Origin: Rozella allomycis CSF55
Taxonomy: Eukaryota
DNA: 62,084 nucleotides
Direction: 5' to 3'
Assembly (NCBI GenBank): GCA_000442015.1
Contig: KE560966.1
Location: 1 to 62,084 of the forward strand
The notes below the pieces were generated by a model. That model saw nothing but the letters and a program-made list of their open reading frames with translations. It did no database searches and was not told where the DNA came from. Positions 33,358 through 48,625 of the stretch are shown here, in pieces; within the stretch, counting starts at the first letter, position 1; each line of letters opens with the position of its first letter. A program made the translations under genes and the position numbers.

Positions 33358-34543
33358 ATGGTTTGGCTCTATTTTCTGTTTCTGCTAGTACTCGTCGATT
33401 GCCATGATCTTGAAGCTATTAAAAATACCAATATTTTGCACGTGTATGATATTTGTTCAGAAATATCTGCCTTTGAGATTCTGGACTCTCGTGATATCGT
33501 TGCTCTAAGATTATGTGATTCTACGTTACGCTATTTTCCAGAATCTAAGAGATGCTTTGAGCCTATGATGAAATATTTAAAAAAGAATGAATACTTTCAT
33601 GATCTAGATCCTGATGAAATCCGCAGAATAGAGAGAGCATTAAAGAGGCTAGCTTTTAGGTTTCCATTTTACACACTAAATTCAATAATGCATTATTTTT
33701 CGCGAGAAGATCTTGTTTTCTATTCTAAAATTGCATCCCAAGGAGACAGGAGGTGGATTCCTTNGACGGTGGATTCCTTTCCATGAACTCTCAAAGGTAT
33801 TTTATGAAAACAGACGTTTTAAAAGTACACATATTTTACCTCTTGCAATCCATATATTAAGAGATGATGAAAATGTAGCAATAAAATTAGCAAGTGTCAG
33901 ACTACTATACAAAACATGTTTTCTCGTAAATGATCCAAAAGAAGTTGAAAAAGAAATTTATAAATGCTTGAAATATGTCATTGCAAACAATAATTTGAGT
34001 TTACGTGAAGCAGATATAATTTGTCTTGTAGGTTTTAGCTGTTTTGATAATAAGCAGTCAAACATTCTTTTGCGCTTGCTTCATAGACATCAAAATTTGA
34101 AAGTTCTTAAAAGAGTTGTCTTTAATCCGTATTATATGAGAGATAACTTGGGATTCTTGACTAAAAGTATACAAATGGTCATAAATTTTTTGGTAACTTC
34201 AATAACAACATCAATACTGATTTATGGCTTTAATACTTTCAAATCACCATTATTTAATATATTTGTGAGTTATATAATTTATATAATTCATAGCTACTCG
34301 TATATTTATCATAACTGGCCAAAGACATTGCGCGAGGCCAATAGAGGCCGCCTTCCTGAAATCTATCGCATTGGCTTCATTCCTATTAGAAGATTATATA
34401 GCCCGCTAAGCATTATTCTTGATCTATTAGGAATATATATGATTGGAAACTGGTCACAGAATATCTTAAGTTACATGGTAATTTATTCATTTTTCCCACT
34501 TCGAGCCATATTGATGCATATATACTATATTTTTAAAAAATAA
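33358..34543 (+). CDS. Signal peptide + F-box-like + C-terminal multi-TM family, member A
   Basis: MVWLYFLFLLVLVDC signal peptide. The frame break coincides with an N33764 duplication. Collinear similarity to 34667-35868. Confidence 0.7.
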
Positions 34544-34666
34544 ATTCTTCATTCGCATTTGCTAAAACTGATCTTTCTTTTTGACAGCTGTCATTATCTC
34601 CAATCACGTGAAAGTTTGTTAGTGACATTAACAAAAACGTTGGCGGCGTAATTCAAATTCCAAAAA

Positions 34667-35868
34667 ATGCATCTACCTTTTTATTTGGCTTTAATAATCT
34701 TAGAATTCGTGAAATGCACAAAGGATGCACTTACTGCAAAAGAAAAGGTATTCAGCAACCTAGATCTGTGCAACGAGATCTCTTCTTTTTCCAACTTAAC
34801 ACCACGAGACATATTGTCAGTCAGATTAACGAATTCACGTCTAAAGAAGTTCCCGGCATCTCCATTATGCATCCGACCATTGTTTAAACACCTAAAAGGA
34901 AATCGAATCAATAATTTAAATAGAAGGTTTCCCGGTCATAAAAATGAAACTGAATTTGAGGTCCTTACACTGGCAAGAAGATTTCCATTTACCACTTTGG
35001 TTATAATGATGCATTACTTTAAGCCCCAAGATGTTTCTCATTACGCTAGTGTCATCTCCAAGTATGACAATAGATGGCGTTCTTTCCACGAAATAGTCTT
35101 AAAATATTCTAGCGATCACAAATTTGACAAACATGATATTGCGCGCATTAAAAATATGTTTAGTCAATGTCAAAATTTATCAATAAGATTTGCTAATTTA
35201 TATCTGCTGACTTTGATCGACACTTCACCAGAATTAGAAGGCGAAGTTGGTAACATATTGTATAACGAATTNGCATCTTGTATAACGAATTGTTGAAAAT
35301 AACTACGAATCATGGATTGGAAGATATAGAGGCTAGTATTGTTGGCGAAATCTGTTTAAACAGACTGGAGAATATGGAATCTAATGATATACTACTTTTA
35401 GCATTAAATTATCAAAGCTTTCCAGTCTTGCGAGCTATTTTTTCGTCTTTGGGATCATGGAATTCCATTGAGTTCATTGAAGAAACCTTTGCCCCAATAG
35501 TTACAATATTTTCAAATACCATGAAACTTTTGTTATTTATTCACGTGTTCAAACTATTTAAAATAACGAAATCATTTTACATTTTAAATTACGCCTTCAA
35601 TTGCGCAAGTTATTATTATTTAACCTCAAAAACTAAAAAAGATCTTAATCTGAATGAATACAAAGGAAGACTACAAAAAATCGATAGGATCGGATTAATT
35701 CCCAGAAACGTCATTTTTGGTGGTGCAGGTGTCCTTATTGATTTGATTCTGGTCCTTTTTGTGGATGTAACAGATAGAAGTGCTTTGAGACACCTATTGG
35801 CTTTCCTAGTTTTCCCAATTCGTGTTTTCCTATCGCATTGTTACTACTTCTTTCTTAAGAGAAAATAA
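34667..35868 (+). CDS. Signal peptide + F-box-like + C-terminal multi-TM family, member B (tandem paralog of A)
   Basis: Shares DxCxEISxF..L..RD..xRL..S.L..FP.S..C, LA.RFPF.TL..MHYF, D.RW..FHE and GRL..I.RIG.IP with A. Break at N35272. Confidence 0.7.
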
Positions 35869-35909
35869 AGGGGTTATTAGATTAAATGCTTTTTATTTTG
35901 ATAGTCTCA

Positions 35910-45649: not shown

Positions 45650-45816
45650 AAATTAGAATTCCCAGTATCATATTATTCTAATTTCTACCACCCACAATAA
45701 TATCTTGAAATTTCTCTTCGTGAAAACTCAATAAACCGATATCATATTTCCTAAACTTTTATATATTCTTATCACATAATTTCAAGATATAATTACCGAT
45801 CCAGTGTTTTTGAAAC

Positions 45817-47328
45817 ATGGAATTTTCAGAAGTATTCAAACATACATTTTCTTTGTTTTCGCCTGATGGAACTCTTTTGGTTTCTTGTATGCAACATAGA
45901 TTAATATTGCGCGATACAAATACGTTATCCGTCAACCAGATATATACTCTGCCTGACGTGATTGTAGAAATACTTTGGAATCCTAACAGCACAATATTCG
46001 CGTGCATAAACCAATCAAAAAGCTGCATATATCTAATATCAATCGAGAAAGACACGCTTCTAGGAAAGATTGACCTGGGAACCGTTTTAAAAATTGAAAA
46101 ATATCTTTGGAGTCCAACAGGAGCCTACCTTGTTATTTTCTTGGAGCATCAATTAAAAATTTTGATTTTTGATTTAAACAAAGGGCAGATAGTCAAGCAA
46201 ATTCCAAATCCTAAATTCAGCGACAGGGGCTTCCAGTTTCGACTTGATGGTGAATATTTTATGTTTATTCAAAGAATTCAAGCCAAAGATTTTGTGTCGA
46301 TACATTCTTGCGAAGGAAATTGGAATTGTGTTAGACGATTTGAAATTGATTCCATTGACGCCGACGGTTTAGCGTGGTCTCCCGATAATAGAACAATAGC
46401 GATTTATGAGACATTCTTTGAAGTAAAATTTTTCATTTATGTATACTAGTATAAAATTATGTTTTATTCACCTGACGGTAGAATGCTTCGAAAGGAACAC
46501 AGGCCAACCAACGAGACAATGTGCATGGGAATCCAAACCTTGAAATGGTCCCCATCATCTCAACTTTTAGCTGTTGGTTCTTATGACCATAAGATAGCAT
46601 TTTATAATTGTTACACTTTTAAAAACTCATTAGAGTTTGAACTGTCTCCAATTCAGCGCCCGGAAGATGGGATTGTAATGATTTCTTAAAACTTATAACA
46701 GATAATTTATAAAGAAACTTGTAACATTCCAAGCTACAGTAACACAAAAAGTGCGAAATCAAATGTTTCTTGTAACATCAAAATTTTCAATTTAGATAGT
46801 TGAGGCTGTAATGGATGAAGTTAATATTCCTACATTGAAATTAGAGGATAAAAATGCATTAAAATATGGTGTTGGTCATATTTCATTCAATAAAGAAGGG
46901 ACGTTTGTCGCAGCAAGAGATTGTAAAAAAGAAATCGCAACATAAATTAGCATCCATGCCAAACGCTTTATGGATTATTTATCTGCCAGCCGCTAAGATT
47001 TACTCGTTGGTTTTATTTAGAAGCCCCATAAAAACTTTTGAATGGTCATCTTCAAAGGATAAATTAAGTGTTTGCACTAATGGCCCTTACATTTTTCATT
47101 GGACTGTCAACTCGTGCCATGGGATTGAAATACCAATGCGTAAATTTTATTTTCAACGATTTCATAGCTGAATTTTCAGTCAAAGATATCGAATGGAACC
47201 ACAGGGATCGGTGTGTTTTGCTTAAAGATAAGTTGGTATATTGTCTTGGGTATCCAGTAGAAGNGGATCGATGTGTTTTGCTTAAAGATAAGTTGGTATA
47301 TTGTCTTGGGTATCCAGTAGAAGATTAG
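45817..47328 (+). CDS. WRAP73: WD-repeat protein WRAP73/WDR8 (centriolar/spindle pole)
   Basis: MEFSEVFK..FSPDG, WSPD, YSPDGR, MGIQTLKWSPSSQLLAVGSYD and MPNALWI. Confidence 0.88.
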
Positions 47329-47416
47329 AACTTTCTAAGATAAGTATTAAATAAATTTTAAATGGTTTAAAAACTACTTCATATTAAATAAAACAAAGAT
47401 AATGGAAGGTGTTTTA

Positions 47417-48625
47417 TTACAATTTCAGTTTCTTTAATGCTCTGGTAACGACTATTAGGTGAAGTATAAAAACTTTAAAAAAAGTTGTCCACAAACAAAT
47501 AATCTGGTGAGAAGAGAAATAAGTGAAGTAAAAAATGAAAGCACTTTGAATGAAAATAACAACTGGATTGACAAAATCTGAAAGAGGCACAACACTGACA
47601 CGTTCATTAAAGGGTACCCTGTTTCGAAATCTTTGACTGTTAGAATGAATCAAAACGCCCCGTTTTGCTTCCAAAAACTTAAATGCCCAAAATAGACATC
47701 CTTCTAAAATTACCGATGAGAATAAGGGTCCCAAGTGCTTCAAAAGAACTGTAAACATGAAAGTGGCATATGCAGTAAAAGCTATTCCGTTCGCCAATGG
47801 CGATAAAAATTTATCGTGACCATAACGTTTAATAATGTCCTGAAAATACATTCGGACAAAGTTATACCTTTCTTTTGACAAACTGAGCAAAAACAGCTCC
47901 TTTACTTGCTCATGATTGAAATAGTCTTTAAATACAAAAAACTTGATAATGTCTAGATCGTTTTCATAAAATTCGGAATCATGAATTTCTAAATGCTCGT
48001 AAATCGCTAGAAACAGTAGATAGTTGACATCGTTTACAGAAAATACCTTAATCTTTCGTATGTCATCCTTTAAAAGTTCTATTGTCATCAATTTTGAATC
48101 AAGCGGCGCCTTTGAAGAAAGTAATTGGTCGATATCTGAATTAATCTTATATTTAAGTGCACGGAATTTTTCAGCAAAATCAGGAGTCTCATTCAAGTAA
48201 TAACCATCAACAAGATCAATCAGCGATTTTAAATCTCTAGTGATGCTCTGAAATTTATGCCATTTTTTCTCTTTCCTCTGCATTATCATGTGGATAAAAT
48301 GGTCTTTGTGAAGGTGATTGTGTCCAAATACAAACAGCGATGTCAAATAATTTGAAAACCGTCGTTGGTATACAAATTTCATGTTTTCTAAAAATTGTCT
48401 GGTCACTGCATTCTTCGGATCATCATAATACTGAATAAGCGAAGAAGCACAAGCTGGAGATAGCGGGAAGTGTCTAAAGCTTCTACATGTAAATCTTAAG
48501 TTTTTCAAGTCTTCTTTTTTCAAGCAGTCAAATGCTGAAATGTTCTCTCTTACTTCTTCTGGAATATCAGTGAATTTTGCGGCGAATAGAACGCTAAAAT
48601 AACAAAAGAATATATAAAATCTCAT
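47417..48625 (-). CDS. Signal peptide + F-box-like + C-terminal multi-TM family, member C
   Basis: MRFYIFFCYFSVLFA signal peptide, then FTDIPEEVRENISAF..LKKEDLKNLRFTCRSFRHFPLSPAC. About four C-terminal hydrophobic segments. Confidence 0.7.
   Translation of the reverse strand: MRFYIFFCYFSVLFAAKFTDIPEEVRENISAFDCLKKEDLKNLRFTCRSFRHFPLSPACASSLIQYYDDPKNAVTRQFLENMKFVYQRRFSNYLTSLFVFGHNHLHKDHFIHMIMQRKEKKWHKFQSITRDLKSLIDLVDGYYLNETPDFAEKFRALKYKINSDIDQLLSSKAPLDSKLMTIELLKDDIRKIKVFSVNDVNYLLFLAIYEHLEIHDSEFYENDLDIIKFFVFKDYFNHEQVKELFLLSLSKERYNFVRMYFQDIIKRYGHDKFLSPLANGIAFTAYATFMFTVLLKHLGPLFSSVILEGCLFWAFKFLEAKRGVLIHSNSQRFRNRVPFNERVSVVPLSDFVNPVVIFIQSAFIFYFTYFSSHQIICLWTTFFKVFILHLIVVTRALKKLKL

Follow-up and report, generated by a model that had tools for sequence, protein, structure and literature searches.

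Do the membrane-anchored proteins encoded by three related genes of Rozella allomycis carry an F-box, and if so, would this motif bind the Skp1 of the parasite or that of its host? Rozella, the closest free-swimming relative of microsporidia, controls its host cell from within. The genes in question, here called A, B and C, lie in a 62,084-nucleotide stretch of assembly contig KE560966.1, hereafter the window. A preliminary description of this DNA, made from the letters alone, placed them at 33358-34543, 34667-35868 and 47417-48625, where all three are present, and proposed that their products are secreted, membrane-anchored, and display F-boxes from the parasite surface to the host's SCF ubiquitin ligase (Skp1–cullin–F-box). 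With modest confidence, our analysis favors a reading in which A, B and C encode membrane-tethered SCF substrate receptors with an F-box-derived motif. We regard the F-box origin of that motif as very probable in gene C; hijacking of the host SCF as such we consider unlikely. The genes and their parts, including the open reading frame (ORF) of each, are laid out as follows:

33358..34543, + strand: gene A, ~389 aa after collapse of an assembly join
33442..33555, + strand: N-terminal conserved motif of gene A (residues 29-66), with a degenerate F-box-like core that lacks LP and no Pfam match at E<=10
34169..34534, + strand: membrane module of gene A, four hydrophobic segments in two hairpins around a basic loop, with the loop motif at 34349-34384
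34667..35868, + strand: gene B, ~393 aa after collapse of an assembly join, tandem paralogue of A
34757..34870, + strand: N-terminal conserved motif of gene B (residues 31-68), with Pfam F-box-like E 0.12 (N-half) and 0.0096 (motif alone), profile positions 13-33 of 47
35488..35856, + strand: membrane module of gene B, with the loop motif at 35668-35703 and a weakly hydrophobic second segment
47417..48625, - strand: gene C, an intact 402-aa ORF, distant family member
48578..48625, - strand: signal-like N-terminus of gene C (residues 1-16), 14 uncharged residues after M-R
48449..48574, - strand: motif of gene C (residues 18-59), aligned with Pfam F-box-like over residues 19-52 (48470-48571)
47447..47797, - strand: membrane module of gene C (residues 277-393), with the loop motif at 47585-47620, followed by a basic tail (residues 394-402)

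The layout given in the preliminary description is borne out in all three proteins, which share, in identical order, a hydrophobic N-terminus, a motif of ~40 residues, a helical middle and four C-terminal hydrophobic segments; the three motif strings quoted there are likewise exact. A motif in the loop of the membrane module, R-x5-R-[IV]-x2-[IV]-P, also recurs in A, B and C, its first spacing having previously been miscounted as R-x4. The closeness of the relationship differs between the genes. A and B match one another with tblastn E-values of 8e-23 (N-halves) and 4e-14 (C-halves), and are clear tandem paralogues. Gene C lies 12 kb from this pair, on the opposite strand. BLASTP of C against ROZALSC1DRAFT_23542 (P0007), the public counterpart of gene A, returned two collinear matches, one over the N-terminal motif (E 5e-5) and one over the loop and third hydrophobic segment (E 0.025). 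A profile built from the C-halves of A and B matched C at the loop only (hhalign E 0.22), and hmmsearch with the same profile did not match C at E<=10. The single family proposed earlier is therefore a close one for A and B, and extends to C, judged on these alignments, only as a divergent member far more distant than A and B are from each other.

The resemblance to an F-box is strongest in gene C. When the whole C protein was compared with the 24,736 models of Pfam, only two matched, F-box-like (E 0.039) and F-box (E 0.15). The match spans positions 2-33 of the 47 in the F-box-like profile, the L/I-P-x-E start included, and the I-P-E-E and T-C-R-S-F of C stand in register with the profile across these positions. 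The N-half of gene B also has two Pfam matches, with RICTOR_V ranking above F-box-like (E 0.12), and when the motifs were searched alone the E-values were 0.0062 and 0.022 (C), and 0.0096 and 0.027 (B). A protein-language-model feature search with residues 17-70 of C placed an F-box cluster first (0.92, a score uncalibrated for protein parts), and all six of the named rows among the matches listed were F-box clusters; the corresponding whole-protein search yielded scores <0.9 only, to giant-virus and ankyrin clusters, and is treated as a lead only. Moreover, the UniRef name of ROZALSC1DRAFT_21875 (P0006), the public counterpart of gene C, begins 'F-box domain-containi', which suggests that another profile passes for C. 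We regard an F-box origin of the motif in gene C as probable. As read from the sequences, the motif appears near consensus in C and eroded or degenerate in A and B.

If the motif is F-box-derived, the side of the membrane on which it stands would determine its partner. The N-termini of all three proteins begin with uncharged hydrophobic runs, 13 residues long in A, 10-13 in B and 14 in C; in a cleavable signal peptide the h-region, set between n- and c-regions, measures some 7-15 residues. Their peak 10-mer hydrophobicity of 2.4-3.2 compares with 2.6 for a neighboring polysaccharide deacetylase, and with a peak of <=1.6 in 26 of the 27 other listed ORF starts, the exception (2.66 at 40483) being an internal exon of a TBC gene. 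With spacers of just 87-149 bp between genes, exons further upstream could not be fitted in, so the hydrophobic N-termini of A, B and C are their true starts; gene A has a second possible start at an upstream ATG (33313). The signal peptides previously assigned to the three proteins are thus matched by signal-like hydrophobicity in each, and these N-termini look like secretory signals, although the assignment was read from sequence and the -3/-1 positions are not clear-cut. We also considered whether the N-terminal run could anchor the protein by crossing the whole membrane, leaving the N-terminus outside, and rejected this because 10-14 uncharged residues are too short to span the bilayer.

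At the other end of each protein, the four hydrophobic segments form two hairpins. Lysine plus arginine (K+R) residues were counted by hand in the 15 residues before segment 1, in the three loops, and in the tail:

Gene C: before segment 1, 3; loop 1-2, 1; loop 2-3, 6; loop 3-4, 0; tail, 4
Gene A: before segment 1, 2; loop 1-2, 1; loop 2-3, 7; loop 3-4, 0; tail, 2
Gene B: before segment 1, 0; loop 1-2, 3; loop 2-3, 8; loop 3-4, 2; tail, 3

It is well established that basic residues follow the positive-inside rule, and because of this K+R distribution the basic loop 2-3 and the C-terminal tail should lie on the cytosolic side. Two topologies would satisfy this. With all four segments crossing the membrane, the N-domain would be cytosolic, and the K+R tally on its side versus the opposite one is 13:1 (C), 11:1 (A) and 11:5 (B). 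If segment 2 does not span, the N-domain would be outside, and the tally becomes 3:12 (C), 2:10 (A) and 2:14 (B). A non-spanning segment 2 would reconcile cleavage of the signal with an N-domain on the outside and basic regions in the cytosol. Scored over 19-residue spans, the hydrophobicity of segment 2 stays <1.4 both in A, where it is moderate, and in B, where it is weak; in C it equals that of the neighboring segments. The display of the motif outside the cell, as first proposed, would thus be possible with a non-spanning segment 2, whereas four spans would put the motif in the parasite cytosol; on these features we rate the two topologies as about equal.

The favored reading would join these elements as follows. 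A, B and C would enter the secretory pathway as polytopic membrane proteins, each comprising, in order, a signal-like N-terminus, an F-box-derived motif, an α-helical domain of ~200 residues, a two-hairpin anchor, and a basic tail. The F-box-type motif would recruit Skp1, and via Skp1 a cullin ligase, to the membrane bearing the protein, where the helical domain or the membrane module could pick nearby targets for ubiquitination. Both Skp1 binding and the membrane side of the motif are inferred from sequence features. In the first topology the signal peptide would be cleaved, leaving three spans and the motif outside, and therefore only host Skp1 could be the partner. In the second, four spans would hold the motif in the parasite cytosol, and therefore parasite Skp1 would be the partner. 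We weigh the two forms of the membrane-tethered receptor about evenly, and each taken by itself is rather unlikely, action with the parasite's own Skp1 slightly less so than the host-facing form. In its fullest version the latter would place the motif and helical domain on the outer face of the unwalled plasmodium, where gene C at least would capture Allomyces Skp1 and turn host SCF on host proteins, which we again think unlikely. The interface between Rozella and its host reportedly comprises three membranes, and because of this it is uncertain whether a parasite surface protein would be directly exposed to the host cytosol and its Skp1.

Several results weigh against an SCF role. Membership of the Pfam families F-box (PF00646) and F-box-like (PF12937) is defined by a score at or above the curated gathering cut-off, and the Pfam comparison suggested in the preliminary description returned matches for C and B that all fall below it and none for A. 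Gene C scores 14.2 against 24.3 bits for F-box-like and 12.5 against 20.5 for F-box, and gene B 12.6 against 24.3 bits for F-box-like; gene A has no F-box match in Pfam at E<=10. Because this curated threshold was tested and not reached, we file the proteins as F-box-like and not as F-box members. The consensus claimed for C therefore stands insofar as F-box models are its only two Pfam matches and its I-P-E-E start is present, and falls short in its score and in the PDB. The L-P of helix 1 is missing in A and B. The first language-model match of C shares 117/256 features, on the same scale uncalibrated for protein parts. Against the PDB, a profile of the three N-terminal regions found no F-box chain among 11 matches at E<=10, nor did the single motifs among 4 matches (C) or 1 match (B). 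An F-box folds as three helices over ~40-50 residues; AlphaFold2 gave no usable fold for C, with a predicted local distance difference test (pLDDT) score of 39.3 for the whole protein and 41.2 for its N-terminal 125 residues (3-row alignment). The short helices that it predicts at residues 23-29 and 37-45 carry low confidence, and a Foldseek search of the low-confidence N-terminal model of C against the PDB returned 0 matches at E<=0.001 and none better than E=3. The topology adds two conflicts: a signal peptide ahead of an F-box is at odds with use of the parasite's own Skp1, and four spanning segments are at odds with a signal peptide, so that each topology must explain away one feature. Separately, the proteins of the window include no Skp1, and the helical middle domain matched no Pfam family, being neither a leucine-rich repeat (LRR), WD40 nor kelch domain.

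These results could also be accommodated by a motif that is now a relic. The N-domain would then be translocated to the parasite surface or the endomembrane lumen, where an inherited or convergent F-box-like helix no longer binds Skp1, and the genes would encode lineage-specific surface or endomembrane proteins with a role other than ubiquitination, e.g. contact at the host interface. The signal-like N-termini of all three proteins would suit such a role, as would the loss of the L-P start in A and B, the lack of a Pfam match in A, and the silence of the PDB and fold searches on an F-box. The motifs of C and of B contain N-x-S/T sequons, and conservation across the three proteins continues past the F-box region into F-P-x-S-x2-C. 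The three N-domains, however, share one invariant cysteine only, and so no conserved disulfide pair that would mark an exoplasmic fold, and the retention in C of an F-box-like profile match over positions 2-33, with I-P-E-E, is hard to explain without selection on F-box function. We consider the relic possible, though on the unlikely side.

The resemblance might instead be due to chance, with the family being orphan membrane proteins whose Pfam and language-model matches reflect a generic leucine-rich helical pattern. Library-wide Pfam E-values of only 0.04-0.15 for whole proteins and the negative PDB searches would be expected in this case, and shuffled proteins reach language-model scores of >=0.9 in 4-10/100 cases, a rate with no measurement for protein parts. 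It is less easily reconciled with two paralogues, ~26% identical in the motif region, that match the same Pfam clan, or with an independent annotation pipeline that called P0006 an F-box protein. By our own arithmetic, the per-model probability of such matches is approximately the library-wide E-value divided by 24,736. We therefore judge chance resemblance improbable, and retain the membrane-tethered SCF receptor as our preferred reading.

The gene models on which this reading depends had to be recovered from the assembly. The DNA is that of Rozella allomycis or very near kin, the product of gene C being 98% identical to P0006 over residues 1-230. There are 13 single-n sites in the window, and at 4 of the 13 (2570, 10738, 33764, 35272) the 12-17 nt ending at the n are repeated exactly; at 4 further sites (12354, 29530, 41709, 47264) a near or displaced copy was judged by eye. 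A single n with a duplicated flank is a scaffold-join artefact of the assembly and not a frameshift in the organism. Two such joins interrupt the family:

33752..33779: join artefact in gene A, a 12-nt repeat with n at 33764 and 3 extra bases (33752-33763 repeated at 33768-33779)
35258..35291: join artefact in gene B, a 14-nt repeat with n at 35272 and 5 extra bases (35258-35271 repeated at 35278-35291)

Consequently, the description of three genes of ~400 residues holds directly for the intact 402-residue ORF of C, whereas A and B are each broken in the window by a single-n join. Once the repeat is collapsed, both regain their frame, at ~389 residues (A) and ~393 residues (B). The public model P0007 passes uninterrupted across the gene A join, and the read-through of gene B has no independent record to support it. 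Neither public model is complete: P0007 omits the first two hydrophobic segments of gene A and then crosses the spacer out of frame into gene B, and P0006 is without residues 231-262 and the ~45 final residues of gene C. Joins of this kind also disrupt other ORFs of the window, including a RabGAP-TBC/EF-hand gene at 41709, and there are two N runs, at 13507-13590 and 19275-19765. Gene counts from this assembly need the joins collapsed first.

To catalogue relatives of the family, we searched protein databases and the window itself. An exhaustive phmmer search with C against 1.84 billion representatives matched only P0006, which is C itself. Word-based searches of 5.8 billion clusters (with C, with the profile of the A and B C-halves, and with the profile of the three N-regions, the last against longer proteins) matched only P0006 and P0007; they found no public protein record for gene B, whose sequence was part of the profile queries. 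Related rozellid genomes were covered via the protein databases. Homologs that are ordinary endoplasmic reticulum (ER) proteins of free-living fungi, which the preliminary description had named as evidence that would speak against it, were not found in these database searches. Within the window, hmmsearch with three family profiles against the six-frame translation found no fourth member; a tblastn hit at 57231-57539 (E 0.014) was considered as an extra member and set aside, as the profiles gave no confirmation. The family is restricted to Rozella in the protein databases searched, and its three genes are fast-evolving. Coverage of the Rozella proteome is imperfect, and broken or missing models could hide further members, because gene B has no database record despite being in the query.

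How do these proteins compare with known F-box systems? Their likeness to the F-box proteins of PF00646 and PF12937 lies in the N-terminal motif of ~40 residues, which in C runs from L/I-P-x-E to C-K/R-x-W/F, and in a separate following domain that could bind substrates, as in SCF substrate receptors. They differ in scores below the cut-offs, in a motif that is degenerate in A and B, in a middle domain that is not LRR, WD40 or kelch, and in the position of the motif between a signal-like N-terminus and a polytopic anchor. F-boxes held at membranes do occur. AnkB of Legionella is a lipid-anchored F-box effector on the bacterial vacuole, and resembles the arrangement proposed for Rozella in that its F-box is held at a membrane facing the host cytosol; it is, however, a bacterial protein with ankyrin repeats, delivered by type IV secretion and anchored through host farnesylation, and is not known to be homologous to the Rozella family. 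The ER-membrane isoform of FBXW7 uses a hydrophobic segment to hold its F-box at the endomembrane, and its partner is the Skp1 of the same cell. That type has a single full-length N-terminal transmembrane anchor and WD40 repeats, whereas the Rozella proteins have an N-terminal run of just 10-14 residues and carry their polytopic anchor at the C-terminal end.

Closer parallels in function come from eukaryotic parasites. The SSGP71 F-box-LRR proteins of the Hessian fly possess a signal peptide, an F-box and LRRs, and are described as binding wheat Skp1-like proteins (PMC7330099, citing Zhao et al. 2015). They share with the Rozella family a eukaryotic parasite, a signal peptide before the F-box, and a lineage-specific, diversified family. 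Binding of host Skp1-like proteins by their F-box is also the mechanism that was first proposed for A, B and C, and by analogy may apply here. They differ in being soluble, injected and equipped with LRRs, whereas the three Rozella proteins of the window are anchored in a membrane and lack LRRs. In Nematocida displodere, 152 members of the NemLGF2 family carry a signal peptide or a transmembrane domain at the N-terminus, and a RING domain is present in 113 (PMC4928854). These belong to a species-specific family of a Rozella relative living inside host cells, they combine a secretory signal with a ubiquitin-ligase-type domain, and a host-facing role has been proposed for them; the domain is a C-terminal RING instead of an F-box, and the comparison is by description, with no shared sequence seen. 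SSGP71 and NemLGF2 are the nearest working parallels, although neither is membrane-anchored like the Rozella family and neither is homologous to it. Literature searches that combined F-box with Rozella or with its phylum brought up no paper on the A/B/C family, and those aimed at parasite F-box proteins bearing a signal or a transmembrane segment brought up no equivalent architecture. An F-box behind a secretory signal and ahead of a polytopic anchor is an arrangement undescribed in the literature searched.

The remainder of the window includes genes with signal-like starts as well as housekeeping genes. At 41934-43820 (- strand) lies a 628-residue orphan with a signal-like N-terminus (peak 10-mer 3.02) and weak LRR-type repeats (LRR_LRWD1 E 0.059, LRR_6 E 0.79). 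Repeats of this kind are usually cytosolic, and their placement after a start of secretory type repeats the theme of the F-box-like genes. Directly upstream of gene C, a 535-residue orphan (48775-50382, - strand) matches no Pfam family at E<=0.001; its N-terminus is signal-like, and a hydrophobic stretch lies close to its C-end. A polysaccharide deacetylase gene (35910-36797, - strand; Pfam E 5.6e-14) adjoins gene B tail to tail. Its product starts with a signal-like N-terminus, contains a stretch rich in Ser/Thr, has a hydrophobic C-end, and is probably a chitin deacetylase that is secreted or lipid-anchored. A 152-residue ORF at 61360-61818 (- strand) has a sub-threshold match to the cellulose-binding CBM_2 domain (E 4e-4; 21.1 bits, where the cut-off is 24), a domain that is mainly bacterial. 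Also on the - strand, 13730-14782 encodes an RNA-ligase-domain protein (Pfam E 2.4e-9), and 58799-61285 encodes a family A DNA polymerase of mitochondrial type, its exonuclease domain included (E 1e-100). The housekeeping context further includes ABC-F, Ras, Dus, SDR, kinase and THO2 genes.

What the family would mean for Rozella depends on the side of the membrane that its motif faces. Were the motif to face the parasite cytosol, A, B and C would comprise a membrane-built SCF receptor, with a bearing on how membrane proteins are chosen for ubiquitination. Were it to face the host, Rozella would be a eukaryotic parasite whose plasma membrane displays a ligase adaptor, with no injection of it; no SCF adaptor would have been seen before on the surface of such a parasite, and this one would offer a handle on host manipulation in Rozellomycota.

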